Assembly (NCBI GenBank): GCA_000004985.1
Contig: GG738845.1
DNA from: Naegleria gruberi
Lineage: Eukaryota
Strand: one strand, 5' to 3'
Length of the DNA: 64,000 nt
The translations under genes and the position numbers were made by a program. Under the pieces are notes generated by a model that had not been told where the DNA came from, did no database searches, and saw nothing but the letters and a program-made list of their open reading frames with translations. Below, one piece after another: positions 3,248-53,946 of the stretch (its first letter is position 1; each line of letters begins with the position of its first letter).

Positions 3248-3273
3248 TTTTGGCGGTAAAGATTGCCACCAAA
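3248..3273. promoter_or_regulatory. E2F-like element TTTTGGCGG plus an inverted partner CCACCAAA, 25 nt upstream of the SMC4 ATG
   Basis: Read directly from the sequence at tttggcggtaaagattgccaccaaa. Confidence 0.4.
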
Positions 3274-3329
3274 CTTTCTTGTGTGATAAGTGCATCAAGC
3301 TTAATTAGAATTATATACATTTATTGTAT

Positions 3330-3968
3330 TTAGAAAGCAAAGAACAACAAGGCAACCAAAGTAAGAACAAAGAAGGAGACCTTCATAGCAGTAGCATTGT
3401 TAGCAGCAGTACAATGAACCTTGTAGCCACTAACACAGAGTCCATTAGCACCAGGCAAAGCCTTTTCACCAGTGGTACAAGCAGTATCAGTATAAGCCTT
3501 AAGGTTTCCACATCCAGAGACCTTGAGAGCCTTGAAATCAAAGAAGGAAACTTTGTCAGCAACAGACCTCAAAGCATCTGGAAGAGTTGGCATTTGGATA
3601 CAGACAGAAGAATCGAGGTTAGCACTAACACTGAATGAGGCAGATATCTTAGCACCATCAGATGAAGAACAAGTAGCATCAGTTGGACCATAATAGCTAA
3701 TCATGACAGTACCAGCTGGTGCTTCAGCAGGCATAGTCTTTTCAGCACAGAGAGGCTTGACGGACAAGCTACCAAGAGAAGTACAAGAAAGATCAGTACA
3801 GACTGGATCTAAGAGAGGAACCTTAGTATTAAGGGTAACGTTTCCAATAACATCACTTGAACAATCAGAGGTCTTGTAAATAGCAAAGCGTTCATGACCA
3901 GTACCTAAGGCCAAAACATATTGGAGGGAGACTAATCCCAAGAAGAGAGCAATAATAAATGATTTCAT
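3330..3968 (-). CDS. Secreted Cys-rich surface protein with a signal peptide and a C-terminal hydrophobic, GPI-anchor-like tail (212 aa)
   Basis: It starts MKSFIIALFLGLVSLQYVLA, a signal peptide. It has about 12 Cys and N-glycosylation sites, and ends in the hydrophobic tail KVSFFVLTLVALLFFAF. Confidence 0.6.
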   Translation of the reverse strand: MKSFIIALFLGLVSLQYVLALGTGHERFAIYKTSDCSSDVIGNVTLNTKVPLLDPVCTDLSCTSLGSLSVKPLCAEKTMPAEAPAGTVMISYYGPTDATCSSSDGAKISASFSVSANLDSSVCIQMPTLPDALRSVADKVSFFDFKALKVSGCGNLKAYTDTACTTGEKALPGANGLCVSGYKVHCTAANNATAMKVSFFVLTLVALLFFAF

Positions 3969-4521
3969 TGTTGTGTTATTTTGTTTTTGATTGTTTTATA
4001 AATTGATAAACTAAGGCTGCCTTTTATTTCGTCAAGGGTCAACCTGTGAATCTGATTACAAATCTAAGAGACACAACATATAGTAAGTTCATCCAGTAGT
4101 ATTTCATTATAATCCCTAACAAGCGCTCCTCTCGCTTTCAGGGCCTTAATATGTAACGAATATCTCTACTTTTGTAAATTGTTTATACATTGCTTATAAA
4201 GTTCATTACCAGAACACTGGTTCAAAAGATATCACCACAATTCAACAAGCTTTTTTCCCAGCAATTGACGCTTCTGGTGTTCACAAGCGTTGAAAAGACC
4301 TGTTTATCTCTGATGACCAATATATGATAAGGGTTAAGGGGATTGGACTGTATTGTTTTGGCACATATTGTTATTATTCTTTATTGATGGTCAAGATAAG
4401 TGAATTGATTCATGATTCAAGATTTTGTCTTTCAGGTTTCCATCAACTTTTCGATTTTAAATTGTTCGTCGAAGAAGAGAGTTTCAAAATGCTGTCGTTG
4501 CAGACTGGAGAAATAGCATCT

Positions 4522-5136
4522 TTAGACATGATTAAGAACTTCAGGTGTTGAATTATATTGAACCACAGAGGATGCCTCTGTTGTTTGTGAAGTGGAATAG
4601 GTTGTAGTAGTTGGTTGAACAGTGGTGACCTTTGTGGTCTTTCTTGTTTCTATAACCTTACTGTGAGGTTGTACAATGGTGGCGTTTGCCAAAGGTGCCA
4701 CATTACTTCTCAATATAAAGAACCATCTAATACCAACAATTAAGAGTATCATACCAATCAAGAGGAAAAACACAGAGACCAAAGCAAGAACGATCGGAAT
4801 AGCCATATGAAAACATGTAGTTGGATCGTCGACTTCAGAACCCACACAAACTAGTGAAATTGTTAAATGGTTGGTAATCAAACAATACTTACTTGAATAG
4901 TAACTTCCAATACCAATTGATGCCAAACCAGCCAGGATACCAATAATAAGACATAAGGCTCCCAAAACAATTGAAATAATTGCTCTTCTCTTCTTAATTT
5001 GATAGTACACAGTGGCTCCTTTCTGACCAAGTCCACCATTCAATACAATTGGACGAATAGCTGAGAATTCAAACCCTTCCGGACGACCATCCAACAAGTG
5101 CAAAGCACGTGAAACTTTATTTGGTTTGCCTTCCAT
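4522..5136 (-). CDS. Small membrane protein with two predicted TM helices; function unknown
   Basis: The track ORF 4522..5157 begins at an in-frame TTG; the first ATG (MEGKPNKV) is at 5136. Hydrophobic stretches are AIISIVLGALCLIIGILAGLA and IPIVLALVSVFFLLIGMILLIV, and the tail is Thr-rich. Confidence 0.45.
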   Translation of the reverse strand: MEGKPNKVSRALHLLDGRPEGFEFSAIRPIVLNGGLGQKGATVYYQIKKRRAIISIVLGALCLIIGILAGLASIGIGSYYSSKYCLITNHLTISLVCVGSEVDDPTTCFHMAIPIVLALVSVFFLLIGMILLIVGIRWFFILRSNVAPLANATIVQPHSKVIETRKTTKVTTVQPTTTTYSTSQTTEASSVVQYNSTPEVLNHV

Positions 5137-5657
5137 TATTACTAGTGTGTTATCCAATAATAATAAATAATAGATGTGTTGGGTGATTAATAAGACTGAT
5201 CAGATCGCAACTTAAACTGCTTTTTTTAAAGTGAATTTGCACACAACATGAACTGAATGAAAAGGGAACAACAACGGTCACATGTTAAGGTTTAACTGAA
5301 AAGGGCGCTTGGCATCTATAAGGCAGATGAGGAGGGAAAGAAGTAATAAGGAAACACGCTTCACCATTCTTAAAGACTAGTGCATTATTATGGAAATATT
5401 GACTTCAAATACTATAAACAATACGCCTCTATTCAGATATTAATTTTAGAGGTCTCTTAATGTATTAATAAGACAATGGGTTTTAACATCCTTCTTCCAT
5501 TTTTGTTTTTATATCTGGATTACTTCACATTGATTCATTATATTGTCTAAAAGTGCTTTCGTGACTGATGTTTGTCAGGTCTAATAAATATTAAAATATA
5601 AAAAATAATAAAATATTAATTTCTTTTTAAAAGCGATTTTTTAGATTTTATTAAAAA

Positions 5658-18669: not shown

Positions 18670-20898
18670 ATGTCTGCATCCAAGACAGCTATTGTTTCAA
18701 CCTTAGTGGTTGTTATGATGGTTTTGATCCAAAGTGCCTTGTCTCTTAAGAATTCTGCCCACAAGAGAAGTGAAGATGACTGGATTCCGGGTAGGTTTTA
18801 TTGTTGTTCTTGTTGCGGATATTTATTCTGTAATTTTTTATATTAAGGCTACAATTACATGTTGAGCGGTTTCGACGTTAGAAGTATGCAAAGTTCTTCT
18901 AACAGCATGGATCCTGCTAAGAATGTTGTAAATTTAATTTTCAGACCAACCACTGAGTTTGGAACTTTGTACCGTATGCCAGTTTCTAAGGAAAAGTTTA
19001 AGGTACCAGATGCCATTGAAGTTTATGATTATGTTACTACAAACGTTACTAAAACATCAGACACTATGGAATCAATGTCTGAATCATTGAAGTATGAAGC
19101 TTCAAGCTATTCATTCTCATTCTCTGTCAACGTTGGTGTTGTCGGTGTTAGTGCTGGTTTGAACACATCTTTTGGCCACATTCACCAAACCTTTGCTCAA
19201 AGCAATCTCTTTATGGCCACTGGTTCTATTAGAGGTACTATTTATCAAGCTACCCTTGAACCACCAACATTCTTGGAACAAAATCCATACTTTAAGAGAG
19301 CTTTGGCTGCCATTCCAAACACTCCAACTGCTGCCGATTTGGACAAGATTAATACCTTGATCAAATACTTTGGTGTTTCATATGTTTCAAAGGGTGTTTT
19401 CGGTGGTAAATTCAATTTGATCACTAAGGTTTCTGATAAGATCCTCAAGTCCTATGACAAGTCTTGGTGTATTACTCAATTGTCCTTGACCTTCAGTTAT
19501 GGCGCTTATTCATTTGGTATGTCTGGATTCAAAAATAAGACTGATATCCATGTCAATAATGATTTTGCCAATAACGCCAAGACTGACATGTTCTTCGTTG
19601 GTGGTGACTTTACTTTGCAAAGTAACGAAACTCTTAAGGAATGGTACCAATCAATTCCAGGCCAACCATCCCTTATCGGAGGTGAATTCAATTTGATTTC
19701 TGATTTGGTTGATAACAATGCTGTAAAGAAGAAGAATTTGGAAGCCATCTTGAAGAACTATGTTGCCACTGGTAGAGTTGAAATTCCTGCTTCCATCAAG
19801 AAGATTGCTGTTCCTCATCCACTCAAGAGAAATGTCCTCCTTGATCTTTCTCGTATTCCAGGTGCTGCCTTGATTGGTTCTGGTTTCGATACCTTTACGT
19901 AAGTTGTTTTTTGTTTAAATCTCAACTAATTAACGTTAAATAGTCTCACTCCAAGATTGAGTCTTTTCAAGCAAGCTCCAGATTCCAAGGCTACTACTTG
20001 GACTAATCCAATCTATAAGGATATTCAATTCGCTGTTCCAGGAAACGTCCTCGTCAGAAATAATGCTGAATCATACTATGCTAACAGCACTTTTGTTGCT
20101 TTGACCAAGCAAGAATACGAATATCAATATAGAGAACACTCCTCTAAATCTGGCATGTTCGGTTTGAGTCACCATTCTAGAGATGTTTTCATTTATAACT
20201 ATCGTTATGAATTTGAAGATTCTTACCAATTGAATACTTTCAGAAGAATTTCTTGGTATGATTTGTCATTGGATCCTCTCTGTTTGTTCGATCTTAATAA
20301 CCGTCTTGAACCATTTGCTAAGAGAATGATTGATTCTCTCCCAGCTACTGGTGGTGATCAAAAAGAAGTCAGAGATAAGTACAAGAAGTTTATCGATTAC
20401 TATGGTACTGCTGTTGTCACCAAGACAACTATGGGTGGTGGTATCTTCTTCAAGGTTAACTTTAAGAAGGATTTGACCAAGACTTTGAGCATTCATGAAA
20501 TCCACGAACAATCTGGATGGTCATTCCTCCACATTTTCGGTGAAAAGTCAACTCACGATTTCTATCTTAAGAAGTTGTCTCAACAGTTCATTCAACACTC
20601 GTCTGTTGAATTCAACACTCAAGGTGGTTCTTGGACTCCAGAAATTAACGGTGTTAGACCAACTGGTCCAAATGCTCTTAACATTATTGATTCTCCAGAA
20701 GGTTACATGAGTTGGGAAGATTATGCTAACTCTATCAAGTATGACCCATACCCAGTCAACTATGAATTGCAACCAATTCACACTATCTTTGCTGATAAGG
20801 CCAAGCAAGGTATTATGAAGTCTGTTCTTGATGAATATCTCCAAGAAAAGTACAATCAAAAGCCAGCTTCATTCTCCAGAGCCGGTAAGGAATACTAA
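18670..20898 (+). CDS. Secreted protein with two tandem MACPF (perforin-like) domains; 3 exons, ~708 aa
   Basis: Exon 1 is 18670..18790 and encodes the signal peptide MSASKTAIVSTLVVVMMVLIQSALS. A 57-nt intron lies at 18791..18847 (GTAGGT...TTAAG). Exon 2 is 18848..19898. A 45-nt intron lies at 19899..19943 (GTAAGT...AATAG), in phase. Exon 3 is 19944..20898. Each half carries SGFD...SFSFSVNVGVVGVSAG...YFGVSYVSKGVFGG or YYGTAVVTKTTMGGG, and a C9-like end (YDPYPVNYELQPIHTIF). Confidence 0.75.
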
Positions 20899-20923
20899 AT
20901 AAATATAATTGTTGTTTATTCAA

Positions 20924-23070: not shown

Positions 23071-23096
23071 AATATTTAATAATTAAAAAGAATGAG

Positions 23097-23169
23097 TGGA
23101 GATGCGGGGTATCGATCCCCGTACCTCTTCCATGCTAAAGAAGCGCTCTACCATGTGAGCTACATCCCC
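23097..23169 (-). tRNA. tRNA-Ala (anticodon AGC), 73 nt
   Basis: A cloverleaf I folded by hand. The acceptor stem GGGGATG/CATCTCC has the G3:U70 alanine identity pair. The D stem is GCTC/GAGC, the anticodon stem CTTCT/GGAAG, the loop TTAGCAT with U33 and A37, and the T stem CGGGG/CCCCG. A discriminator A is present and no CCA is encoded. The T loop ATCGATA has A54 instead of T54, and the D loop deviates from the usual A-box. Confidence 0.8.
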
Positions 23170-26645: not shown

Positions 26646-26657
26646 TTTGGCGCCAAT
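26646..26657. promoter_or_regulatory. Palindromic E2F-like site TTTGGCGCCAAT, ~40 nt upstream of the RRP8 ATG
   Basis: The GGCGCC core with T/A-run flanks. Confidence 0.45.
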
Positions 26658-26697: not shown

Positions 26698-27735
26698 ATG
26701 CCACCACACCAAAAGATATTCAACAATAACAGCAAGAAGAGAAAACAAGCTGAGAAGAGAAAGGAAGAAACCGAAATATTTGAAGAGGAAGATGATGAAA
26801 TTGTCATCAAGAAAGTAGAAGATATTTCTATTGCCTCTCCGGATGCAAAGAAAAGAAAGGTTGATAGCAAACCAACAAAACAACAAACTCCAATCAAACA
26901 ACAACAACAGGCACCAACAACAACAAGTAAGAAACAAAACAAAACATCATCATCAACACAACAGGGTTCTTCTTCCTCTCAATTAACATCCCTCCAACAA
27001 GAATTCCAAGAGAAATTAAAATCATCTAAATTCCGTTTCTTGAATGAAAAACTTTACACCACAACAGGTCATCAAGCAAAATTGCTCTTTGAAAAGGATC
27101 CTTCTCTGTTCACTCTTTATCATGATGGATATAGACAATCAATGGAAAAGTGGCCATTCCAACCTGTTAAAAACATGATTAAATATTTAAATGGAAAACC
27201 ATTGAACTGGGTTGTTGCTGATATGGGTTGTGGAGAAGCTGAAATTGCCAAGAATGCAAAGCAAAAGACAATTCACTCTTTTGATTTAGTTGCTGCAAAT
27301 GATAAAGTTGTAGCTTGTGATATGAGAAAGACACCTCTCTCAGAGGAATGTGTTGATTGTGTCATCTTTTGTCTTTCATTGATGGGCACCAATTTTTATG
27401 ATTATTTGAGAGAATCATCGAGGATTTGTAAACAAGGAGGTTGTTTGAGAATTGCAGAATTGGAATCAAGATTTTTAACAGAGGAAACAAAGTCAAATAC
27501 TATGGAAGATGAAGTTCCATCAAAATCACCAAAGAAGAAGATTAACCCATTCGTAAAATTCGTTTCATGTGTTGAACATTTTGGATTTAAATTACAAAAA
27601 CAATCCACACCAAATGGATACTTTGTAATTTTTGAATTTGATAAGGTTAAGCCTTACTCTGAGGTAAAATCCCTCAAAGATCCAAACTTTACCAATCTTG
27701 ATGTCTTGAAGCCATGTATCTATAAGAGAAGATAA
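26698..27735 (+). CDS. rrp8: rRNA-processing methyltransferase RRP8
   Basis: The N terminus is K-rich. The SAM-methyltransferase region is ADMGCGEAEIA...SFDLVAANDKVVACD...CVIFCLSLMGTNFYDYLRESSRICKQGGCLRIAELESRF. Confidence 0.75.
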   Translation: MPPHQKIFNNNSKKRKQAEKRKEETEIFEEEDDEIVIKKVEDISIASPDAKKRKVDSKPTKQQTPIKQQQQAPTTTSKKQNKTSSSTQQGSSSSQLTSLQQEFQEKLKSSKFRFLNEKLYTTTGHQAKLLFEKDPSLFTLYHDGYRQSMEKWPFQPVKNMIKYLNGKPLNWVVADMGCGEAEIAKNAKQKTIHSFDLVAANDKVVACDMRKTPLSEECVDCVIFCLSLMGTNFYDYLRESSRICKQGGCLRIAELESRFLTEETKSNTMEDEVPSKSPKKKINPFVKFVSCVEHFGFKLQKQSTPNGYFVIFEFDKVKPYSEVKSLKDPNFTNLDVLKPCIYKRR

Positions 27736-27890
27736 TATGTGTGAAATAAATTACATTTTTCTAAAATGAGATACTTTTTGCAAGATGTGAATGGCATGGT
27801 ATGGTACATAATTGGAATTTACAGTTTCCAGCCAAGTTGTTAAAACTTGCAAGTTAGTGTTAGAATTCATTGATAAATGTAACTGAATTA

Positions 27891-27902
27891 TTGGCGCCAA
27901 AA
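27891..27902. promoter_or_regulatory. E2F-like site TTGGCGCCAAAA, ~15 nt upstream of the ATG of the Cys-rich zinc-finger gene
   Basis: Read directly from the sequence. Confidence 0.45.
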
Positions 27903-27916
27903 TTGTTACCGCCACT

Positions 27917-28959
27917 TTGAAAATGCAAACGTTTCAATTTCCTCAATTTAAAAAAATGTCAACAGCATTAAGGATAGCGATTGCTCATCGCAATTCTTCA
28001 CCAATTCAACAACAGCAGCAACAATTAGTTCAAGAAGTACCTCCTTCATCACCTCAAGTAACCTCTCCCTCCCAAACCTTCTACTATGCCAATGGTTCTA
28101 AAGTTTCCAACACACAGAACATTCATGTTTGCAGAATGAAGAATGGATTGGAACATACACCCAATGGAAAGGAAAAGGACGCCTTCAAGTACTATTGTCC
28201 TATATGTATGATGTATTTTAAGAGTAAGTAATTGCGTTCCGAAGTTAGTTCGGTTTATCATGTGATGATAAATTGTAGAAATTTTCAAAGTCGACTGTTG
28301 TTCACAATATATATGTAAATACTGTATGGAAGATATACTGGATCATGGTAAAACAGCTAAATGTTCCTCACTGAGTTGTCCCTATTGTTTAAAGGAACAA
28401 GTAAGGTTTAAACCAGTTGATAAACGAGAACAAGTAAGAAGCTATTCGGATGAGATGCCAAAACCTTCTCCCTCTTCCAAATTGAATAATACGATAATAT
28501 CTAACAACTCGAATAGTTTGAAAACACATGAAACTCCTTATTTCCACAGAAGATGCTAAAGTTGAAGCTCAACGATGCTCCTCTCCTCTCTCAATAAGAA
28601 GTAACAGAATTATTCCACTCAGAAAGACAAAGAGTGAATCTCAAATGGTCATGTTTGATGATTTGTTCTATATTGAAAATGAGCAACCACTGGAAAGACA
28701 ATTGTCATTCTCATCACAAGATGATGGTCCAAAATTGTTTGAAACTAAATTGGACACTACGTTTATTAATGTTGTTCCTGCTAGAAAACAGAGATCAGCA
28801 CCATCAACTTTAGGAACAAGAAAGCATGTTAAGAAACAGCCATTATTTGATAATAACTTTAAAAAGGAAAACGACATTATTCGGGACGAATTTACTCCTA
28901 GAGCTTCTCAAAAGAAAAAGTTTAGAAATCCTGTAAAGGAATGTTGTTGCTTCCAATAA
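27917..28959 (+). CDS. Cys-rich zinc-finger (RING-like) protein; 2-3 exons
   Basis: Exon 1 is 27917..28223 (...KYYCPICMMYFK). A 55-nt intron lies at 28224..28278 (GTAAGT...TTGTAG). Exon 2 is 28279..28515 and continues IFKVDCCSQYICKYCMEDILDHGKTAKCSSLSCPYCL. A tentative 34-nt intron at 28516..28549 (GTTTGA...CACAG) would link to exon 3, 28550..28959. If it is not spliced, the CDS ends at 28559. Confidence 0.5.
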
Positions 28960-28964
28960 TAAAT

Positions 28965-31900: not shown

Positions 31901-34900
31901 TAATCTTCTCAAGTGATTGCATTCCTCAGTGTATTTGTTTAATTGAGAATAGTGAAAGAAGCAATTAATGAATATCAAGAATAAGGCTATGATGTAGATG
32001 GCCAGAGAAATTGGAATTCTCACCCCAATCATTGAGCTCACTAAATAGGTTGATAACAAATCAATCTTATCGCTAATCAGCTTATTGATTTGAATTAATT
32101 TGATAAATAAATTTTCATTTTCCAATCCCATGTTGGATGAATATAAGCTATCCATAATTACGGCATAATTTTCAATTAATGAATCTAAACCGTCACACGC
32201 ATACTTAATATGACAATTATTTGAGGTATTGGAGTAAATGTCGGAAATAGCTGTGATGTGAATAGAGTTGCTGTAACTTGTTTCATTTGTATAACTATCT
32301 TCAAGAACCTCATTCATCATTAAGGCAAATTGCTTGACATTTTCTGGATATTGTTCAGATCCATACCTAAATAGAATCCATGATTCTTCTAGACCTGATT
32401 GAAGACTATATTTATACGTATTACTTTCCAAGTAAGTATTAGTAAGCATCAACTGCTCACTGCTAATTGAATTCAAAAATTTTCCCATATGACTTATTTT
32501 AAATGTTACACTGTGTGAATATGAATCAGTAACCATCGACTCCCAAAATGATATAGATAATGATATAATTGAAACACAATAGGTCATTACCACGATCAAT
32601 AGTAATTTCTTTGAGAAATTGAGAAAAGATGGAGAAATATTGTGATTCTCATTCGATTTTTGTCTTGACAATTTCTTTTCCAATGAGTGAAATATCATAC
32701 CAACAACATCTTTAGGTATTTTAGTGAAGAGTGAAATGATCTTTTCTTTGGTATTGAAAAACAGCTTTGAAAATATTAAGTACAGTATAAACACAATACT
32801 GAAGGAGCCAATTAATGTGCTGAATACAATAATTAATTGATCTGATGGTTTTGAAATCATTTCATTAACCATAGATTGGCAGAAACGTGTTAAATATTCA
32901 CTTGTACTGTTGTGGTTCAATTCTAAGTACAAATATTCATAATTACTATTGAGTGTTTCTAGAGTTGTAAATTTCCAATTCTTGATAGAATCTCCAATAA
33001 CATTCAAATCAGTTATCATTGTGGAGATGGATACATTTTGATAATTGATCACCACTCCATTCTTTGAAATTGTTGGAATAATGACAGGGAAATTGTTTTG
33101 TGAATAATAGTTTAGTTCAGTATTTTTCAATACTCCATACTGATTCATTTTCCCCTTATTTAGAAAAGTTTCCAAAGTGGATATTCTACTCTTGAAGTAA
33201 TTGAAATAATCAAGGGAATGGTAATGGCTGGCTAGTTTTACTTCTCTTAGTAATGAATGAGGAATAAACGATAGCTGGCAACTATTCTTAATTGTAATGA
33301 TGTCGCTTCCATTGGAAGTAACAATAAAACTTGTGATAATAGCCCCAGTTATGAATAGTATGGAAATAAATTGAATAATCAACAAGTAAATATTCTGCTT
33401 TTTCAAATTCAAATGAGTGTTAATAGAATCTCTGAAAACTTTTTCAGTCAACCTGAATGACTGTTTTTTAGTAAAAGATTCATTGATTGGTATTATTTTA
33501 GAACTTGATCTTTTGAAACTCTTTGATCGATCTAAATCAATACTTGAAGATTTTGTATCAATTTCTGAATTTTGAAAAGCATCCATATAGTCATTATTTT
33601 CAAATAAAAACTCAGCAAAAAATTGTTGCTTTCTCTTCAATATTTGTTGATTTTCTGGGTAGTTCAACATTAAGTGATTGAAAATAGATAATATTGACTC
33701 CTGTACATTGAACATTTCATGAATTAGTGAGTCAATTTTTTCCAAATCATCTTCATTCGAAACAAAGTATTGCCAAAAGAACTTTCTTAAAAATCTCAAC
33801 TTTTCCTGAAGATTTAGTTGCCTCTCCAATAGTGTTCTAATCTCTGAAGTTGTCTGCTGTCCTGAATTCAACTCAATTTCCTGTATTTTAGTTTGGATTA
33901 TTAATCGTTGAAGGATATTTGATTGTCTGTTAGCATATCTCAAAGTATTGAGTGAAAACAGAGGATTATCATGAAATATGGATGTGTAAACTGCACTCAC
34001 AATCAAAGTTGAAATGTTGAGTTGTGACTTTTTACTCATGCAAAATTTAATCAATTCCTCATCCAATTCAGTAGCATGCATTTTCAATTTTAGACAATTC
34101 TTTAGATACTTCTCTGGAAAGTTGTGATTGAAAAAACTAACTCCGTCCATTTGATTTCTGTATTCGAGAGCAGCTCTCTTCATTATTAGATTGTAAATTT
34201 CAACAATTCCAAAACCAATAAAAAAGAGAATTATCAAACCTGATATTCCACCTCCTAATAAAATAGACAATCCTATTGGCATGTCATTAGTAGTATTCAC
34301 GTAGAGAGATACAATTTCACTTTCACTACCACTAAGTTTGGCTAAAATAACTCCTCCATATATTGAGCCAAATCGATGATTTAAAAAAGGCATGTTCAAT
34401 ATTAAATATACAAATAGTAAAATTGAAATGATGACGTTTAGCAATGGTCTAATGATAAATACTTGAGGAGGAATAAATTGAGAAATAAATACATATAATT
34501 GGTTGAGAATTGAAAATATTGCAATAAATTCAAATGATTCCAATGAAAGAAAGGATGGTCTTCTTCTCATTCCCAAACTACTAGATTCAATGATTATTAT
34601 AATACCTAATATTGTGAGTGGAATTTGTACAATTATGTAAACAATTGAAAATCCAGCTAATATTCCATTAAACAAGGACCAACACTCTACGTTTGGAAAT
34701 CTTCTGAGTCGATATGAATTTTCATTATAATCACATGCAATAAATGTTGTTGCCCAATACGTAAATACCAAATTAAATATTGCAAAAATACATAAAAATA
34801 TTCTGACGAAATACTTGAATTTCCCTAAATAGGAACTTCCGTTTTTAAATGCTAAATATGAAAAATATAAACTTAATAAAGTTAATAACTCGAAAGAAAA

Positions 34901-35436
34901 CAAAATAATGACTATAATTTGTAAAGATTCATAACTGTACCAATCAGATCCAAAAGTTCGGAGAGCTGATTGTGAAAAAATTACAATATCTCCAATTTTG
35001 GAAAAGTTAAATTCTAACAAAAAAACAAATAAATAAATGCAAAATACAGGAAATCCAACCTACCAGACTCAAAACTAATACTCAAAGTCCCATAAATTAT
35101 CGAATAACAATGGAACATCAAAAGTGACCATTGAGGAATAGGCGATTTCACTAACAAGGATAAAATCATCATTGAAAATTGTTCAATTTTGGCATTCACA
35201 TAACTTATCTTATCCATTGGATTAGCTGCAGACCCCTTTGATATATCGGAAGCTACATTGAGAGCAGAACGTGAGTCATCGAGCGAATTCCTTTGCCCAG
35301 TTTCATATTCTTTAAGGACTGGGGCTAAGAGTGGTGAACTGTTTCCTCCTGAGAGTGTATGAGGAGTGTTTCCTCCACTATTATTACTTGAAACACTTGT
35401 TGATATAGCGAGACTCCTCACTTTTTCTGCCATCAT
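28965..35436 (-). CDS. Polytopic membrane receptor-like nucleotidyl cyclase with PAS, class III cyclase and RGS domains plus a Q/N/T-rich tail (~2106 aa, 4 exons)
   Basis: Exon 1 is 35436..35064; the ATG follows an in-frame TTG at 35445. A 50-nt intron lies at 35063..35014 (GTAGGT...TTGTTAG). Exon 2 is 35013..30949. A 43-nt intron lies at 30948..30906 (GTAAGT...CCAAG). Exon 3 is 30905..30600. A 58-nt intron lies at 30599..30542 (GTAAGT...CAATTAG). Exon 4 is 30541..28965. Total coding length is 6321 nt, which is divisible by 3. There are at least 10 hydrophobic helices and a PAS-like segment (GAVDGVIVLKTNTTLVEIINQSACKMLGY...). The cyclase core is FDDVTCLYSDMVGFT...KIKTIGDAYFCVGG...IRIGIHSGPVIAGCIG...YDLWGETLTIAN/LMESKGIPGRIQVS. 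The RGS domain is split by intron 3: SFEAMFSN...AFINLFKEF...|SDILAFYLHAIEYKD...FPSFVKSKIFSKFL. Confidence 0.7.
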
Positions 35437-35998
35437 TTTGTCCAATAATAATATTTATATTAATATTTTACAAATGGAATTACAAATTCAGAAAGATATC
35501 TTTAACATGCAACAATATCGTTAGAATAATGTATTTCCTGACGGTGCGTTATTATTGGTTGTTGTTATGATGATGGAATTGAATAAACAAGGCAGCAAAC
35601 AACAACACTTGGCCTGAATATTTGATGAACCGATTTTGAGGCTGTTTTTCTCAAAAAGCTCTTAGAGGTTCAACCGAAGAGCCAATCGATAGGGAAGAGA
35701 AAATTGGCACACTCATCAAGAACCTCCTCTTAATAGAATGACCTCTCCGCAGAATTGACAAATTCAATCCTTACGTCCTGTTAAGGCATTGAAAAAATAT
35801 TGTGGCGAAATTGTTAAGCGTTGTTGTGTGACTAAATAAAGATGTGAATTAACCAAATATTAAAATATTTATATTAAGATTTTTGATTTAGTCTTTGATA
35901 AAATGTTGTTTTGAAATCATGGTTTTATTATTTTACAATTTAAACTCGCAGACTATATAGTTGTTGTGTTCCTTTTCTAAGCAAGAAATAGAACAATT

Positions 35999-38870: not shown

Positions 38871-38882
38871 AATGGCGCCAGC
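38871..38882. promoter_or_regulatory. Weaker E2F-like core AATGGCGCCAGC in the intergenic region between the hydrolase and Pcf11 genes
   Basis: Read directly from the sequence; the flanks are less canonical. Confidence 0.3.
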
Positions 38883-39158: not shown

Positions 39159-40689
39159 ATGTCAAACTTACCAGAAGTTGTGCAAGATTTTAGTGAAGCT
39201 CTTCAGACTGATCTTAAAACAGCTGATAGCATGCAAATTTATGTGTTAACAGAAATTGCACAAGATAACATTGAATATGCTAAGGAAATATCTAAAGTAA
39301 TTTGTACTAGAATTAATACTGTACGTACAGTTGTTGTTGTTGTGAATTAATTAATATTCGGAATTTATTTGGATCTTGTTTTATAATAATTATTAGGCTC
39401 CAACTGGAGAGAAACTCTATGCTCTCTACCTTTTGGATTCTATAGCAAAAAAGATTGGAGGACCATACATACAAGAATTTTCGAAAAGTATTTCAGACGT
39501 ATTTTTCTATGCATATAAACAAAACAAAGACATTCCAAACTCTAAGAAATCATATTTAAAACTCCTCTCAACCTGGGGAGAAGTATTTGGAGAAGAAAAA
39601 GCAAAGGAAATTAAGAATAGAATTGATGTTGCAGAAGGAGGAGGACAAAGAGTTGTCCAACAACCACCAAAACAACAGCCACAATCATCAAATAGTGGAA
39701 TGAAACGAGTTGGATCTTCATCTGATGTAGGTTTATTAATTGTACTACTATTTATTAATATTTCATATTTCAATTCTTTAAAAACTGAATAGCAATCCGA
39801 ACAAGCTCTTTTAGGAACACTTCTTGAAAAATTACAAAGAAATCCTGAATTAATCAATGATCCTCAAACAGCATCTTTGTTTAAACAATTGACATCTAAA
39901 ATGAGCATTAATCTTCCTCAACAAATTGGGAGACCTAATCCATATGCTCCTCCAAATCAAACAACCAGTGTCAACATTAATAATAACCCATATTCGGGAA
40001 ATTCCTCAAAAAACACACAACAAACAAATCAATTTTCAAATATTCCCTCAACCCATTCCATGATGCAAAGCTCCTCTCAGCAACAATCCAATAAACCATC
40101 ATCTAATCCAGTGCATCGACTGTATGAGGCACTCACTAAACAGTGCATGAACTGTGGAGTGAGATTCTCATCCCAGAAACAACTTGGAGAACATTTAGAT
40201 GTTCACCAAAGAAAGAATCAATTCTTTAGAAATAATAAGGATTTATCGAGAAAGTGGTACTCTGGGGAAGATGAATGGATAAAGCTAAGGGATAATGACG
40301 AAACCGAAGCAATTCAATGCCCTGGAGCAATTATATTTGGTGATTCAGAATCATTTAATCCTCAATCTCTCACCAAAACAGCCTCAACAACCGCCCTCTC
40401 AGCAGTCGATTTCTTTGCTACTTTCAATACCAACAAGTCCAAACCTAAAGATGTGAATGAAGGTAGTGGCGAAATTGTTGCCGACACTGAACAAGACACA
40501 TGTCCAGTTTGTCATGAGGAATTAGAAAAGTTCTACAATTCAGAGACAGCAGAATGGATGCTGAAAGGTGCTGTGTATGATGAATCATGCAACCTCTACG
40601 TTCACCAGAATTGCCTTTCCTCTTCGCACAAGAGAAAATCAGATGGAGATGCAGGAGGTTTCAATAAAAAAGTAAAGCAAGAGTTCTAG
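39159..40689 (+). CDS. pcf11: Pcf11-like pre-mRNA cleavage/polyadenylation factor (CID domain plus zinc fingers)
   Basis: The exons are 39159..39320, 39397..39726 and 39793..40689. The introns are 76 nt (GTACGT...TATTAG) and 66 nt (GTAGGT...GAATAG). The CID is ...KLYALYLLDSIAKKIGGPYIQEF.... Zinc fingers CMNCGVRF...HLDVH and CPVCHEE...HQNC follow. Confidence 0.65.
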
Positions 40690-45820: not shown

Positions 45821-45834
45821 AAAAAGGCGCCAAC
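45821..45834. promoter_or_regulatory. E2F-like site AAAAAGGCGCCAAC upstream of the PP2A B'' gene
   Basis: Read directly from the sequence. Confidence 0.4.
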
Positions 45835-46011: not shown

Positions 46012-48246
46012 ATGGATTTTGATCATCAAACAACAACATCTTCCTATTCGACACAGAATCCATCAGTCGTGCCCTCTTCATCTCTTATATCCTCTCCCAA
46101 AACAAAGGATAGTGATTCTCCTTCTGAACTTAATCAGTACGCTAAACAAAAGCTAAACGAATTGTATCTATATTGGATTGGTAAGAAGGAATCACAACAC
46201 CTCATGTTTGAATACATGGAGTCTTTTAATGAATCCATTTCATCACCATTAATGCAATCTCCGAGTAACTCCCCAAATGTTAGCATGATGGATTTGTCAT
46301 CGTCAAGCCAACTATCTTCAAGATCCCAGAATTCTACAATGGATTTTAAACTTAGTGAAGCAAGCTCCTCATCTTCAATGCCTTTAACTCAAATGAAATC
46401 CGACGTACAATATTTAGGAAGTGAAAATAATAGATTTTCATCATCGGATCCAATGATCCAACAACAACCAACTCTTAAAACATCTCCCTCCAAACTTTCC
46501 AACAATTCAAAGATGTCCTCCCCTAAAATGTTTTCCTCCCCAAACAGATCTTCAAAATCACAAGTAATAGTAGATGAAGTAGATTTTTCAATGCAACACA
46601 AACTCTCACATAACGAACCTAGCCATCATTCTCATCATCATTCCCATCCACCTCCTATCAATCCACAAAATGAAACCATGTTTACTACTGTTCTGACAGA
46701 TCAACCCGGAAGTATAGTGTCTATTTCAAACTCCCTTCAAAACATCACTCCTCATTACTTTTCTAATTTATCTACAGGTTCATCTACTCCTCCTAAATCT
46801 CCAATCCACTCCCCAACACGGTCCTCTAAACCAACCAATCTTGATGTGGAAATTGCACATCACCCTTCTATTAACAGTATCAGAAAAAAGTTGAACTTTT
46901 CAGATGACTTGGAAGATAATACTCAAATCAAAACAGGAATTTTACAAAGAAAACTTCAAGAGCTTCAAAACGTAGCAATTAACTATGAAAGCCAAAAGAA
47001 GAAGATGAAAATGAGTGTAGATGATGCTTCATTCTCAAAAATTCCAAGGTTTTACTTTCCTAACGAAAAGATTACAACCACCTCCAAAATTAAGGAGGAT
47101 TTCATCAAGATTAAGCAATTCTTCCTAGGATATCCAACCGGTGTTACTTTGGAGCAATTTGGAAAATTGATAACCGATATTTGTGACTTTCCATCATTTT
47201 TTAGATTTCATTTATTTTCTAGAATAGATGAATTTGGGATGGGAGTTGTAACATGTGAAATGTTTGAAGATTATTGGAAACAAAATATGCAATTTGATAA
47301 CGAGAGCTATAGATATTTTAATGTAATCAAACAGAAAAATAATGACTTTATTGTTCCATCTGATTTCAAGTTACTTTTGAGAGAAATATTGGCCAATCAT
47401 CCTGGATTAAGATTTTTAGAACAAGCTCCTCAATTTCAAGAGAAATATGCAGAGACAGTGATTATTAGAATTTTCTATGGACTTTCCAAATCTTCATCGA
47501 TTGGGAAAATATATCTGAGAGAGTTCAAAAATAGTAATCTTGTAGAAACCTTTAAATTATTAGACAAGGAGCAAGATACCAATAATGAGATTAATTACTT
47601 TGCATACGAGCATTTTTATGTTCTTTTCTGCAAGTTCTGGGAATTGGATACAGACAGAGATGGTATGCTCTCTAAAGATGACTTATTAATTTATGGAGAT
47701 AGCTGTTTAACAGAGTTTATTATTGATAGAATTATGAGTGGATTTGGTAAAAAGCTAACTGGTAAAAACCCAAACATGATGTCATACGAAGATTTTGTGT
47801 GGTTTTGCCTCTCTGAAGAAGATAAAACTACACCAGTTGCTCAAGAATACTGGTTTAGATGTGTAGATATTGATGGAGATGGAGTATTGAGCCTCTACGA
47901 GTTGGAGCAAGTATTTTCAGAACAAAAAGAACGTATCAAACAATATGATCCAGAAATTTCTTTCAGCGACATCCATTGCCAAATAATAGATATGTTAAAA
48001 CCAAAGAATAGAGATGTGATTACATTAGCTGACATTAAGAAATCAAAAATGTCACCAATATTCTTCAATATTTTGTTCAATCTTACAAAATTCTTTGTAT
48101 TTGAACAAAGAGGAACTTTTGGCACCAACAATGTTTGGGCCATCTATGCTAAAGAAGAATATCAAAGATTAATAAGTGAAGACGAAGAAGACCAACAAGA
48201 AATGGTTGATGAAGAGTTGGAAGCCGAAGATGTTGTTATCAACTAG
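46012..48246 (+). CDS. Protein phosphatase 2A regulatory subunit B'' (PR72/PR130 family, EF-hand)
   Basis: The C-terminal half matches the B'' core: HFYVLFCKFWELDTDRDGMLSKDDL...YWFRCVDIDGDGVLSLYELEQVF...VFEQRGTF. The N-terminal ~350 aa is S/P/H-rich low complexity. Confidence 0.7.
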   Translation: MDFDHQTTTSSYSTQNPSVVPSSSLISSPKTKDSDSPSELNQYAKQKLNELYLYWIGKKESQHLMFEYMESFNESISSPLMQSPSNSPNVSMMDLSSSSQLSSRSQNSTMDFKLSEASSSSSMPLTQMKSDVQYLGSENNRFSSSDPMIQQQPTLKTSPSKLSNNSKMSSPKMFSSPNRSSKSQVIVDEVDFSMQHKLSHNEPSHHSHHHSHPPPINPQNETMFTTVLTDQPGSIVSISNSLQNITPHYFSNLSTGSSTPPKSPIHSPTRSSKPTNLDVEIAHHPSINSIRKKLNFSDDLEDNTQIKTGILQRKLQELQNVAINYESQKKKMKMSVDDASFSKIPRFYFPNEKITTTSKIKEDFIKIKQFFLGYPTGVTLEQFGKLITDICDFPSFFRFHLFSRIDEFGMGVVTCEMFEDYWKQNMQFDNESYRYFNVIKQKNNDFIVPSDFKLLLREILANHPGLRFLEQAPQFQEKYAETVIIRIFYGLSKSSSIGKIYLREFKNSNLVETFKLLDKEQDTNNEINYFAYEHFYVLFCKFWELDTDRDGMLSKDDLLIYGDSCLTEFIIDRIMSGFGKKLTGKNPNMMSYEDFVWFCLSEEDKTTPVAQEYWFRCVDIDGDGVLSLYELEQVFSEQKERIKQYDPEISFSDIHCQIIDMLKPKNRDVITLADIKKSKMSPIFFNILFNLTKFFVFEQRGTFGTNNVWAIYAKEEYQRLISEDEEDQQEMVDEELEAEDVVIN

Positions 48247-48474: not shown

Positions 48475-48810
48475 TTAATTGGTGAAACAATTCTTTTGCA
48501 TTGCCTCTCTCAACATGGTTGGATTATTACCAATAAAACGGTCCACAACTTTACCATCCTTGAGAAAGATAAAACTTGGCATTTGATTCACATGATATTT
48601 ATCAGCAAGTTCATCATGATGATCCACATTAACTTTAACAACATTGATACAGTGTTGATATTGGGTTGCCAATTGTTCAACAGTCGGAGCGATTTGTCGG
48701 CAAGGACTGCACCAATTTGCATAGAAATCTGCCATCACCACTTTGGCGGCAGTACTGCTGGAGGAGAGAACTTGATTGAATTCTTGTGGTGAATGAATGT
48801 GTTGAGCCAT
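48475..48810 (-). CDS. trx: Thioredoxin (active-site variant WCSPC)
   Basis: A 111-aa ORF with the motif FYANWCSPCRQIAP. Confidence 0.75.
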   Translation of the reverse strand: MAQHIHSPQEFNQVLSSSSTAAKVVMADFYANWCSPCRQIAPTVEQLATQYQHCINVVKVNVDHHDELADKYHVNQMPSFIFLKDGKVVDRFIGNNPTMLREAMQKNCFTN

Positions 48811-49096
48811 TTTTTGTTAATATTATTTTTAAATATTATTACAACGCTGTAGTTGTCATTTAGTAATTTTAGATAACACTATTTTCCTTAATGCTCTTCA
48901 TTCTTTCAAGAAAAAGAATATTAATAAGAACTGTTGCTCTCTGTTACTGGTGCCCTCAATAAAAAGTTAATTCTCCCTCACTTGTTATCTTCGTAATCAA
49001 AAAAACCGGCTTCCGAAGGATGTTACCCAATGACTTTTTGTGATTTCCTTCAAACAATCTCAACGGTTAGAAACATAATCTCGGTTCTGATTTGTG

Positions 49097-49110
49097 AATT
49101 GGCGCCAAAA
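49097..49110. promoter_or_regulatory. Palindromic E2F-like site AATTGGCGCCAAAA in the divergent promoter between the thioredoxin (-) and ELO (+) genes
   Basis: Read directly from the sequence. Confidence 0.45.
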
Positions 49111-49505: not shown

Positions 49506-50444
49506 ATGCCTCTCCTTCTCAAAGAACCATTGCTCGCCTTCTATCGTGAGGTTGTTGCTGAACCATCCAAACTCATGGATGTTAACTTCCTTTCCACTTC
49601 ATATCATGAAAAGTTTAGACTTACATTGGACCAAACTTACTTCATGAAGGAATGGACAAACGTTCTCCCAATTTCTTCAGTAATTATCTACTTGTTCATT
49701 GTCTTTGTTTTGCCAAAGATGCTTCCAAAACCAGATAAGAATGCTTCCAGACCAATTTTGAAGACTGTCATGTTCTTGTGGAATATTTTCTTGTGTATTT
49801 TGTCACTTGCCATGTTGTTAGGTACTGCTATCCCATACTTCAACCTCTTGAAGAATGAATACAATTATTCTATGCCAGGTTTGATTTGTGAACAAAAGAA
49901 GGCTGTTGGTGCTGCTGAAGGTTATCCACACATTGTTTGGGCCTACATCTTTGCTCTCTCTAAGTATTTAGAACTCTTCGACACTGTCTTGTTGGTTATC
50001 AAGCATCCAGACCGTAAAGTTCCATTCTTGCACTGGTTCCACCACTTGACCGTTTTGTGTTTCACTTGGTATGCTGTTTATACTCAATATGCTGTCGGAT
50101 ATTGTTTCATTATCATGAACTCTCTCATTCACACTTTCATGTACTATTACTATGCTTTGACTGAATTGGGTTTCAGACCAAGCTGGAATTTCCTCTTGAC
50201 TATTGGACAAATTTCTCAAATGATTTTGGGTATTGTCTGTAACGTCATCTTTGCCATGAAGTGGTTCGAAAATAAGGAAAAGGGACTCTCAATCGATGAA
50301 AATTGTACTTGTTATGCTCCTTATGAAATTATGCTCAGCTGCGTTCTTATGTACGGTTCATACTTGTATTTGTTCGTTGACTTCTTCGTTAGAAAGTACT
50401 TTGGATCAAGCAAGCCAGTTGTTGCCAAGCCTAAGTCAGAATAA
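49506..50444 (+). CDS. elo: ELO-family fatty-acid elongase
   Basis: The ATG is at 49506; the track start is an upstream TTG. It has multiple TM helices, the KxxExxDT box (KYLELFDT) and the HxxHH box (LHWFHH). Confidence 0.8.
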   Translation: MPLLLKEPLLAFYREVVAEPSKLMDVNFLSTSYHEKFRLTLDQTYFMKEWTNVLPISSVIIYLFIVFVLPKMLPKPDKNASRPILKTVMFLWNIFLCILSLAMLLGTAIPYFNLLKNEYNYSMPGLICEQKKAVGAAEGYPHIVWAYIFALSKYLELFDTVLLVIKHPDRKVPFLHWFHHLTVLCFTWYAVYTQYAVGYCFIIMNSLIHTFMYYYYALTELGFRPSWNFLLTIGQISQMILGIVCNVIFAMKWFENKEKGLSIDENCTCYAPYEIMLSCVLMYGSYLYLFVDFFVRKYFGSSKPVVAKPKSE

Positions 50445-50808
50445 TTCTTTTCAACCAAACTATTTGAGTTTAAAAACTAAATAAATTTTGTAATTCTCTT
50501 GTAAAGTATGTTTGTAAAGTATGTTCCCCCATTGAAACTTGAAACAAATTTAAATTGCAGCTATTTTGGTAAAATTCACCAAGAAGTTTATTAAGAAAAC
50601 CATTCTAAATAGACTTAAAGTCCAAAAGTCTAGATATAGGACAAGCAGATTCTAAATGATACGGAATGCTAATTTGTTGGATGGCACCTTGCCCAAACAA
50701 AGACTTGTTCCCAATTTGGTCACCCTTAATATTTTTGAATGTTTCAGGAACTGCACTCTTTGTTAGAGACACAATTGAAAAAAAAACAAACTGATTCAGT
50801 GGCGCGTA

Positions 50809-51731
50809 GTGATGGGATCGAACACGTCCATTACACACACAACTCCTACCCTGATGATTGAGAGGAGACATCATTACAAACCAAGAGCAACACCATACCA
50901 CCATTCTGATCATTCTAATGATGGTAGGAGAAGAGAAGGTCGAGCCTCACGTTCATTGAATGGTTCATCTTCGCACAGTCATGATTACTCTACAGCAAAG
51001 GAAGAAGAGGCACTCCCTTAATAATTCTACCGCACAGGATAAGAAACGATATGTACATCGAAGTAATGATGACTTGATCTTTTCAAAGAGGGTTGGTGCT
51101 ACTCTTCATAGAAGTCAAGAAAATTCCTCTAACCAATCCAATGGCTCATTTGGAAAGATTGCAGGTTTTACTCCAGTTGTTGACTTCTCGCCACTTCCAA
51201 AGGTTGAAAGTGAATCAAATTTCATTATTCATCACTCACCGAATCCAAGTACTGCTACCATTCCTCCAGTATCAAAAATTCTAATTCCAACATATACTAA
51301 TTCTCAATGTCATAGATTTAAGACCTCAAATGTCAGATTCTCCATCAAAGCTTCCTCAACTGACTTTTGGAAAGCAAGCAAGAAAGTCGATTGTTGTATC
51401 GGATGCAAGTGGCTTAATTGTATCTTTTATAACAAATGCATTTGACAAATCAAGAGGAAAATCAGAAGATGACGACTTGGTTGTTATCGACCAATCTCTT
51501 TCCTCATCATATCAATCATTACCACCACTCAATGAAAATCTTGGAAATGAGCAAGTTCAAATCATTGTAACTCCACCACCAAGCCTGCCAGATTTGAGCC
51601 ATTTGGGTGTATCTCATTGTAAGTTAAGACTCATGTCTCTTGAAATTTCACAAAAGCGTAAAATGTCCAGAGACAAGAGGGATATTATTTGCTCACCGTC
51701 CAATAAATTCAAACCTATTGTTTTGAGGTAA
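50809..51731 (+). CDS. Possible S/T/N-rich protein gene with unresolved exon structure
   Basis: Three overlapping track ORFs in all three plus frames (50809..51021, 50960..51445, 51330..51731) plus a minus ORF 50605..50913. No canonical intron reconciles the frames: b-to-c would need a 28-nt GT...AG. This could be a frameshift or separate small genes. Confidence 0.2.
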
Positions 51732-51859
51732 ATAAAGTGTAAGCTGACTGCATTAATTACGTACTAACAATGAACAATTAATGTCTAGAGGAATTAATTT
51801 AATAAATACTCTTTCATCCAGTGGACACCAGAATTATTATTTACATTGTTCTATACAGC

Positions 51860-53779
51860 TTAATCGTCGAAATTTGTCATTTCTTCTTCTTCATCCAAGT
51901 TTCGTTCTTCATCAAAGAATTGATCTATCATTGAACCAAGAGTTTTGGAATCATATGAAACGTACTTTGTAACATTCTTACTGAATTCGGTATTTTTGTA
52001 CTTTTCAACAAATTGTGTATATACAGGTATAACTTCTTCACGAGTTTTGTCTCTGAGCTCTTCCTTTAGTTCTATATCCCTGATGCAGTATGTTCTCTGA
52101 ATCATGTAAATAGCTTGGAATAGTTCGTTGAATTTGGAAAATCTCTTCTTAATCTCTTTCTTTGGATACTTTCCATTCTTATCAGGTTTTAACTTTTCTT
52201 GGTCTCTGAAATGTGAAAGAACATCATCCCAGGTAGCTCTTATGTATGAGTTGGTATCATCTTCCTTTAACTTCTTGTATTCTCTTTGTTTGGCTTCAGG
52301 AACATGCTTCTTGATTTTGGCATCTTGTAAATTCTTGAAAATATAATAGTGATTGTTCAGCACGAAAAGAGAAGCAAGACTCTTTTGTTTTGTGCTGTAT
52401 TGCTTTTTCTTTTCATCAATATTATGCTCAACAGCCTCTATCAATTGTAATAAATATTTGGCAAAGTAGGTCTTAATGTCACTATAACCAAACATTCTAT
52501 CAGTGTCGAATCTCTTCTGTTTGAGGATATTCTCAATGGATGGGTATTCAAGTAGTCTCTTCATGAAGGAGAATGCATTACTTGTAGCTTGATGGACAAC
52601 ACCATCCTCAAATGCTTTGATTTGATTGGTATGAATATTCTTATGAAAATCTGTCAGTAAATCATTAATATTATTCTTGAATGTTTCAGATAAGGTCTTG
52701 AATGCTTGCAAATGTTGAGTGTGAGCCAAAACTTCTTCGAAATTTTTCAAAAGCTTATTCTCAAAGTTTTCCAAAATATCTAGCATGACAAACACCTTTT
52801 CACTAGTTCTATTCTTATCTGCCAAATCTTCTGCTTGTTCTTTGAATATCTTTAAACTTGGAGAAACAACGTCACCATAAATTTGATTCTTTTGGTAGTC
52901 AACACTGACAACTTTCAGTGCAATCTTTCTTTCAGATTCCAACAGTTTCAAGTAAAAGTTCATGTAAAATATGAATGGATGAGAACCCTTCTTGTAGTAT
53001 TTCTGACTAAGAATCATATCATCATCCTTCTTTTTCAATTGTTTGATAGCATTCAAATTTGTTGGAACTTGCAATGCTTTATCCTTCTTTTCTGGTATAA
53101 GTACATTAAGAGCTGTTGTAATGCACTTGGATCTGTATTGAATGTATGTTCTTCTATAATCAATTTTACTGTAAAATTCCAATTTTTGAGCAATTGTAGA
53201 TAATTGATCAATCTTCTCCGAAGGAATTAAATCATAAGTTAAATCAAAATCATCCCTTTCCAAATCTTCCTTTCTATATCTGAAAGGGTCATTAGCTGGT
53301 GCTTTGGCACTAACAGTTTGAAGAATGTTAGAAAATTCGGCTTCCAATATTTGAACTGATTTTTGTCTCAACGAAAGACATTTGTCTTTTAATTTATCAG
53401 CACCTTTATAATTACTATGTTTTGAGAAGAAGGTAATAGTTTCATCATTTTGTTTGACAACTCCGAGAAAGCCTTCCAAATCATTAGCAATTCCTTTTTC
53501 AATCCTCTTTTCGAACATTTGTGGTCTATTATACTTTTCCAGAGTAAGATCCACACTTTTAATTGTAGAATCAATATTATCATGAGCCATCTTTAAAACA
53601 TCAATTCTATCATTCATGCTCGTCATTTCCTGCTCCAATTTTGAAAATCGATTTTCAAATCGATCTAGAATAGATACAATCTGATCCTTGATTTGAGAGC
53701 TTTTATTTAAACTCTCCTCCAACACTTTCAAATTCTTTTCAAAATGTTGAAAGGTTTTTGTAGGTATCGGGTTTTGCAT
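51860..53779 (-). CDS. exo70: Exocyst complex component Exo70
   Basis: A 639-aa ORF. The C-terminal Exo70 signature is LASLFVLNNHYYIFKNL...KKEIKKRFSKFNELFQAIYMIQRTYCIRDIELKEELRDKTREEVIPVYTQFVEKY. Confidence 0.75.
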   Translation of the reverse strand: MQNPIPTKTFQHFEKNLKVLEESLNKSSQIKDQIVSILDRFENRFSKLEQEMTSMNDRIDVLKMAHDNIDSTIKSVDLTLEKYNRPQMFEKRIEKGIANDLEGFLGVVKQNDETITFFSKHSNYKGADKLKDKCLSLRQKSVQILEAEFSNILQTVSAKAPANDPFRYRKEDLERDDFDLTYDLIPSEKIDQLSTIAQKLEFYSKIDYRRTYIQYRSKCITTALNVLIPEKKDKALQVPTNLNAIKQLKKKDDDMILSQKYYKKGSHPFIFYMNFYLKLLESERKIALKVVSVDYQKNQIYGDVVSPSLKIFKEQAEDLADKNRTSEKVFVMLDILENFENKLLKNFEEVLAHTQHLQAFKTLSETFKNNINDLLTDFHKNIHTNQIKAFEDGVVHQATSNAFSFMKRLLEYPSIENILKQKRFDTDRMFGYSDIKTYFAKYLLQLIEAVEHNIDEKKKQYSTKQKSLASLFVLNNHYYIFKNLQDAKIKKHVPEAKQREYKKLKEDDTNSYIRATWDDVLSHFRDQEKLKPDKNGKYPKKEIKKRFSKFNELFQAIYMIQRTYCIRDIELKEELRDKTREEVIPVYTQFVEKYKNTEFSKNVTKYVSYDSKTLGSMIDQFFDEERNLDEEEEMTNFDD

Positions 53780-53934
53780 TTTTTTTTGATAATAAATTAT
53801 CCACTCACAACAACAATTTAAATTTATTATTAAAAAAACGTGATTTGAAAGAAGAATGGAATTCGTTAGAAGTTTTCAACAACAAAAATAACATTTTAAT
53901 AAAAGTGACTTGTATTTTTAATTATTTTAAAGTA

Positions 53935-53946
53935 TTTTGGCGCCAG
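53935..53946. promoter_or_regulatory. E2F-like site TTTTGGCGCCAG in the 183-nt divergent promoter between the Exo70 (-) and Tctex (+) genes
   Basis: Read directly from the sequence. Confidence 0.45.

Follow-up and report, generated by a model that had tools for sequence, protein, structure and literature searches.

GGCGCC elements in the window

This analysis concerns a 64,000-nucleotide (nt) stretch of Naegleria gruberi DNA (contig GG738845.1, hereafter the window), in which a palindromic element with the core GGCGCC recurs upstream of genes and was proposed in an earlier note to be a binding site for E2F-family proteins. The Exo70 open reading frame (ORF) of the window was 100% identical to a Naegleria gruberi protein in a homology search, and several other predicted proteins match NCBI entries of N. 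gruberi NEG-M. A gene map was built from ORFs, Pfam matches, and reading across short introns, and it was used for all intergenic calls. The genes next to the elements are those of the condensin subunit SMC4, an Rrp8-type rRNA methyltransferase, a RING-finger protein, a Pcf11-like protein, a PP2A regulatory subunit, a thioredoxin, a fatty-acid elongase, Exo70, and a Tctex-1 dynein light chain (Table 1).

Table 1 Positions of the GC-rich elements and of the genes that they flank. Positions are those of the window; 12-mers are given for the six palindromic sites.
Feature	Position	Strand	Remarks
SMC4 gene, 5′ part	1..3221	−	two exons with a short intron between; exon 2 is cut by the window edge
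Asymmetric E2F-like site, TTTACCGCCAAA in SMC4 sense	3249..3260	−	28 nt upstream of SMC4 ATG (3221)
Degenerate second element, TTTGGTGGCAA in SMC4 sense	3263..3273	−	upstream of the SMC4 site; resembles TTGGCGCCAA, with two changes
Palindrome TTTGGCGCCAAT	26646..26657		49 nt upstream of Rrp8 ATG (26698)
Rrp8-type rRNA methyltransferase gene	26698..27735	+	
Palindrome ATTGGCGCCAAA	27890..27901		30 nt upstream of RING-finger gene ATG (27923)
Second GC element TTACCGCCA	27906..27914	+	between palindrome and RING-finger ATG; core ACCGCCA as in the SMC4 promoter
RING-finger gene	27923..28959	+	at least one intron
Palindrome AATGGCGCCAGC	38871..38882		weak flanks; 285 nt upstream of Pcf11 ATG (39159), 110 nt past the stop of a hydrolase gene
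Pcf11-like gene	39159..40689	+	CID domain, Pcf11 zinc finger
Palindrome AAAGGCGCCAAC	45823..45834		weak flanks; 186 nt upstream of PP2A B″ ATG (46012)
PP2A regulatory B″ subunit-like gene	46012..48246	+	EF-hand_13
Thioredoxin gene	48478..48816	−	
Palindrome ATTGGCGCCAAA	49098..49109		divergent thioredoxin(−)/ELO(+) region; 285 nt to thioredoxin ATG, 406 nt to ELO ATG
ELO fatty-acid elongase gene	49507..50444	+	
Exo70 gene	51860..53779	−	
Palindrome TTTGGCGCCAGT	53936..53947		divergent Exo70(−)/Tctex(+) region; 30 nt to Tctex ATG (53969), 160 nt to Exo70 ATG (53779)
Tctex-1 dynein light chain gene (NAEGRDRAFT_29177)	53969..54298	+	

The GC content of the window is 30–36%, and GGCGCC occurs in it six times, with the hexamers starting at 26649, 27893, 38874, 45826, 49101, and 53939. 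Dinucleotide-preserving shuffles gave a mean of 0.54 copies and a maximum of 3, and none of 100 shuffles reached six. Among the 36 hexamers composed entirely of G and C (strands collapsed), GGCGCC is the commonest, most of the others having no copy at all. All six copies are intergenic, where intergenic DNA (30% GC) makes up 17.7% of the window (P = 3e-5 for uniform placement), and all lie upstream of start codons, bearing out the claim of the earlier note that the hexamer is rare yet recurrent. Of all k-mers counted without prior selection in the 30 intergenic regions, GGCGCCA (in 6 regions, against 0.08 expected; p = 4e-10) and TGGCGCCA (in 5 regions, against 0.018 expected; p = 1e-11) ranked highest.

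At the level of the 12-mers (Table 1), GGCGCC is followed by an A at every site and preceded by a T at five of the six, and the full octamer TTTGGCGC or GCGCCAAA is present at four. The longer 12-mer TTTGGCGCCAAA, put forward earlier as the motif itself, is a consensus with no exact copy in the window, and the positions given with it mark roughly the start of each 12-mer, the hexamer lying 2–5 nt further right. Counting the SMC4 site with the six palindromes, the distances to the ATG range from 28 to 406 nt and are below 50 nt in four of the seven cases. Two palindromes do lie between head-to-head gene pairs, as had been noticed, but neither is at the midpoint. Beyond about 3 nt on each side, identity between the sites is 22–46%, where 32% is expected by chance; the flanks are thus unrelated, and the sites are not copies of a repeat. 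Taken with the conservation described below, GGCGCC is very probably a real promoter motif maintained by selection.

CpG dinucleotides are depleted in the genic part of the window (observed/expected 0.38) and less so in the intergenic part (0.69), with GpC at ~0.8–0.95. The GGCGCC motif contains a CpG, a point of possible relevance should cytosines be methylated in Naegleria.

Conservation at Rrp8, SMC4, and related loci

The relatives with genomes were N. fowleri, N. lovaniensis, Willaertia magna, and Acrasis kona, and conservation in orthologous promoters was assessed for Rrp8 and SMC4. The Rrp8 site is kept in all four lineages compared, 49–60 nt from the ATG, though the Rrp8 proteins of these lineages are only 51–76% identical in pairwise comparison. 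The site reads TTTTGGCGCCATTT in N. fowleri, 59 nt from the ATG; TTTTGGCGCCACTT in W. magna, 51 nt from the ATG and in a locus with a GC content of 25%; and CTTGGCGCCAAAT in a Naegleria-like environmental contig from ENA, where the distance is 60 nt and the encoded Rrp8 shares ~70% identity with each of the two Naegleria proteins. These positions were read directly from the sequences, a MAFFT alignment of the four upstream regions having put the N. gruberi site in the wrong place. The promoter site is the sole GGCGCC in each of two Rrp8 loci of 21 kb. The upstream neighbors of Rrp8 differ among the three lineages with flanking sequence, and the N. fowleri neighbor is divergently oriented; hence, the element is a feature of the Rrp8 5′ end rather than of a neighboring gene's 3′ end. 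Purifying selection acts on the GGCGCC element at Rrp8.

The SMC4 promoter was said earlier to carry a pair of half-sites. An E2F-like site is indeed present, with the half-site TTTGGCGG at 3249 and TTTGGCGGTAAA filling its 12 positions (Table 1), but it is an asymmetric variant and not a palindrome; the significance of the degenerate element behind it is inferred only. All four SMC4 promoters compared contain a site of this kind, in the form (C)CCGCCAA, TTCCCGC, or TTTCCCGC, ~30–120 nt from the ATG: TTTACCGCCAAAA in N. gruberi, ATTCCCGCTCATCAAA in N. lovaniensis, ATACCCGCCAATCAAA at the alignable position in a Logan Naegleria assembly (whose SMC4 is 88% identical to that of N. lovaniensis), and both GTTTCCCGC and CTCCCGCCAAC within 60 nt of the ATG in Willaertia. 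The condensin genes, smc4 among them, are repressed by the RB protein RblA in Dictyostelium (Strasser et al. 2012, PMC3386910), and human SMC4 is listed among the DREAM/E2F targets. The conserved site would fit control of Naegleria SMC4 by the RB/E2F pathway, of which the gene is a target in these two organisms (the earlier note called it a classic E2F target), and cell-cycle co-regulation of SMC4 is plausible.

The RING-finger (27890–27925) and SMC4 (3249–3273) promoters have a two-part layout in common, which reads, in gene sense, as a TTGGyGsCAA element (degenerate at SMC4) followed by TTACCGCCA, with a gap of 4–5 nt and ~15–16 nt from start to start; these are two cases only. In the RING-finger gene, a CHR-like CTTTGAAA follows this layout and abuts the ATG.

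Across 170 kb of independent heterolobosean loci, TTSSCGC occurs 22 times, and 12 of these copies are no more than 150 nt upstream of an annotated start codon, a zone that makes up 6.2% of the sequence (p = 1e-9); the bias persists when the Rrp8 and SMC4 promoters are left out (7 of 17, p = 4e-5). The asymmetric E2F-type octamers TTTCCCGC and TTTGCCGC are likewise biased toward promoter-proximal positions in the related genomes. No such bias was found in these loci for the scrambled controls TTTSSGCC, TTTCGSSC, and AAASSCGC; a further control pattern, TTTSCSGC, was dropped because it overlaps genuine E2F octamers (TTTCCCGC). GGCGCC itself occurs three times in the ~170 kb, besides the three Rrp8 sites that were fetched deliberately.

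Footprinting at the Exo70 locus gave no conserved site, as synteny is lost: in N. fowleri, N. lovaniensis, and Willaertia, Exo70 has other neighbors and no Tctex gene beside it. Gene order around Exo70 (L001–L003 against window positions 41–64 kb) agrees between N. fowleri and N. lovaniensis, but this pair, N. gruberi, and Willaertia differ completely from one another. A metagenome scan for Tctex returned only relatives that are at most 49% identical along the greater part of the protein (up to 69% in a few short stretches), none with the motif in context.

Two further groups of elements were seen in the loci of relatives. In Willaertia (L003, 992–1234), ATTGGGCGCCAATGG, GCGCCAAA, and CCGCGAAA are clustered 110–345 nt upstream of a large gene whose product has an RCC1-like domain and WD40 repeats. 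In another locus (L005, 5605), TTTCCCGCC precedes a small called gene by 88 nt; the small gene is directly followed by one with a MAP10_N domain, with which it may form a single gene encoding a mitotic microtubule protein.

Candidate readers of the element

The 12-mer ATTGGCGCCAAA is the published motif of human E2F1 from high-throughput systematic evolution of ligands by exponential enrichment (HT-SELEX), with TTTGGCGCCAAA as its JASPAR form, and two of the window sites match this consensus exactly, at 12 of 12 positions. N. gruberi has E2F, DP, DEL (E2F7/8-type), and RB, whose sequences Medina et al. 2016 supply as supplementary material. NgruE2F can be aligned to E2F4 as crystallized with DP2 and DNA (1CF7; E = 7e-25), and in the DNA-binding domain its recognition helix is identical to that of human E2F4. 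The coiled-coil and marked-box region of NgruE2F matches E2F4 and E2F5, and the protein also matches the E2F8 structure 4YO2. NgruDP carries RRRVYDALNVL, read by eye from the sequence, and NgruDEL is a DEL-type protein with two DNA-binding domains. Also by eye, the C-terminal end of NgruE2F reads EGEGVSDLF, which we take to be an RB-binding-type motif. As E2F and DP are present with their DNA-contacting residues intact, a factor able to read the palindrome is predicted to exist in N. gruberi. E2F is the best-fitting known binder, in agreement with the earlier proposal. Literature searches returned no description of E2F cis-elements, a GGCGCC motif, or E2F binding in Naegleria.

We therefore read the GGCGCC palindromes, with the consensus wTTGGCGCCAaw, as predicted E2F-family sites in the proximal promoters of N. 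gruberi, and give this reading as a whole a probability of about 0.6; an E2F-family protein is, on motif match and gene content, the likeliest reader of the element, with odds somewhat better than even. An E2F/DP heterodimer, or another family member such as the DEL/E2F7-8 type, would occupy the palindrome, each winged-helix domain using its RRxYD recognition helix to read one of the GCGC-containing halves, and the flanking T and A runs would add affinity. The asymmetric (TTT)ACCGCCAAA of the SMC4 promoter would belong to this class of sites as well. Binding might then couple the flanked genes to an RB-controlled state of proliferation or of the cell cycle.

Compared with the E2F-DP site of animals and plants (TTTSSCGC; palindrome TTTGGCGCCAAA), the Naegleria site has the same core and two-fold symmetry, a presumably promoter-proximal position, an instance at SMC4, and a cognate E2F/DP with RRxYD helices. 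It differs in belonging to a discoban amoeboflagellate, in being known from its sequence and conservation, in having its best-conserved instance at a ribosome-biogenesis gene, Rrp8, and in flanking mostly genes other than those of replication or mitosis. The RblA/E2F regulon of Dictyostelium discoideum is also that of a free-living amoeba with E2F, DP, and RB, and its RB-repressed smc4 parallels the conserved site at Naegleria SMC4; however, Dictyostelium belongs to the Amoebozoa and Naegleria to the Discoba, and the regulon was defined there by expression in a mutant, where our evidence consists of motifs and their retention in relatives. The element would thus be an E2F site in a discoban protist and not a new kind of system.

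Several observations weigh against the E2F reading. The six palindrome promoters serve functionally mixed genes (Rrp8, RING, Pcf11, PP2A-B″, thioredoxin/ELO, and Tctex/Exo70), none of which is a classical S- or M-phase gene; the proposal in the earlier note of a gene set under joint cell-cycle control finds no support in this list. SMC4, the one classical RB/E2F-pathway gene, has the asymmetric form in place of the palindrome; it alone among the flanked genes fits the class of replication, repair, or mitosis, and the window holds no MCM, PCNA, or RNR gene. The sites at 38874 and 45826 have only the GGCGCC core and lie far from the ATG, and the T and A runs reported earlier for all the palindromes are found at the other sites but not at these two. 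The density of GGCGCC in the window (6 per 64 kb) is about three times that in the fetched loci of the relatives. Finally, the invariant part, GGCGCC(A), could also be read by another dimeric factor.

This last point leads to the alternative that survives best, in which the palindrome is read by a different dimeric factor and serves as a promoter motif of a general or housekeeping kind with no tie to the cell cycle. The mixed functions of the flanked genes, the restriction of the invariant core to GGCGCC plus A with variable T and A runs, and the different variant at SMC4 would all suit such a factor. It is nevertheless hard to reconcile with the exact match to the E2F1 consensus at two sites, with the E2F and DP of identical recognition helices encoded in the genome, and with the equally promoter-proximal position of the asymmetric E2F-type octamers in related genomes. 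We know of no other factor family with specificity for this palindrome. NF-Y was considered as such a reader and rejected: CCAAT or ATTGG overlaps just three of the six window sites and is absent from the Rrp8 element in N. fowleri, Willaertia, and the environmental contig, where GGCGCC is invariant, so that NF-Y is not the common reader. A factor outside the E2F family is, in our judgment, possible but unlikely.

A second alternative keeps the E2F family but assigns the sites mainly to a DEL/E2F7-8-type protein or to an RB/DREAM-like repressor, by which growth genes would be shut down at exit from the cell cycle (flagellate differentiation or encystment) rather than expressed periodically at G1/S. 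NgruDEL and NgruRB exist, the targets include genes for growth, ribosome biogenesis, and trafficking (Rrp8, Pcf11, and Exo70), and Naegleria has been reported to leave the cell cycle upon differentiation. The SMC4-type sites ((C)CCGCCAA(AA) and TTTCCCGC) also resemble the E2F7/8 site TTCCCGCCAAAA. However, E2F7/8 prefers this asymmetric site over the GGCGCC palindrome, the six main Naegleria sites are symmetric palindromes, and a Tctex dynein light chain is not obviously a gene to be repressed while flagella are assembled. Sequence cannot tell which family member binds, and we consider a mainly repressive, DEL-type use of the sites improbable.

Chance, relics of repeats or mobile elements, and a 3′-end or terminator signal of the upstream genes are effectively refuted, since, although four of the six sites follow the stop codon of a same-strand gene by 90–160 nt, no shuffle reached six copies (p ~1e-10 for the 7- and 8-mers), the flanks are no more alike than expected by chance, two sites are in divergent promoters, away from any 3′ end, and the Rrp8 site is kept despite its changed neighbors. 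An origin of GGCGCCA from a tRNA 3′ end or primer-binding site was likewise rejected, the only tRNA gene of the window (23096–23169) being distant from all the sites.

If the palindromes are E2F-family sites, a broader and rather doubtful extension is that TTGGCGCCAA marks an ancient E2F-family regulon of the Heterolobosea that is largely unrelated to the cell cycle itself. It would comprise genes of growth, ribosome biogenesis, and trafficking, the most conserved of them being Rrp8, and through it proliferation genes would be tied to an RB-controlled departure from the cell cycle as amoebae become flagellates or cysts. It would stand apart from the asymmetric sites (CCGCCAA/TTCCCGC) of mitotic genes like SMC4. 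Were this true, it would be cis-regulatory evidence from the Discoba that both the E2F DNA code and a set of targets broader than S phase date to the last eukaryotic common ancestor.

In a more limited way, a conserved cis-element that matches E2F so far from animals and plants supports dating the DNA specificity of E2F/DP to that ancestor. The promoter elements of the Heterolobosea, Naegleria included, are almost uncharacterized, and a review lists the factors that control Naegleria differentiation and cilium genes as an open question. RNA-seq of N. gruberi during mitotic synchrony and differentiation exists (Kennard et al.), and the motif, with Rrp8 and SMC4 as two test promoters, provides a handle for interpreting the mitotic-synchrony data and for the design of reporters. 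The spore germination data suggested earlier as a check do not apply to this organism, which is an amoeboflagellate.

Other features of the window

For Exo70, the public N. gruberi model has 588 amino acids, against 639 for the uninterrupted ORF and 641 for the N. fowleri and N. lovaniensis orthologs; the public model is probably truncated at its N terminus. The plain ORFs of Rrp8, PP2A-B″, thioredoxin, a Ras-like GTPase, and Rcl1 had no exact entry in the protein collection; for Exo70, Rrp8, and PP2A-B″, the lack of an exact match arises because the public gene models differ from the plain ORFs.

Another cluster of GC-rich elements, comprising ATGGCGGCAAAAC, GGGCGGC, CCGCCTCCCG, and two copies of CGGCG, lies at 57397–57616 in a 2.7-kb stretch without a confident gene, 150–370 nt upstream of a 101-amino-acid ORF (57765–58070) that has no Pfam match. 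Elsewhere in the window, two tandem ORFs with a MACPF/perforin domain are arranged head to tail on the plus strand (18859–20898), and the tRNA gene on the minus strand, a single tRNA-Ala(AGC), has protein-coding genes on both sides. A very large minus-strand gene (30851–35445) encodes a PAS domain together with an adenylate/guanylate cyclase catalytic domain.

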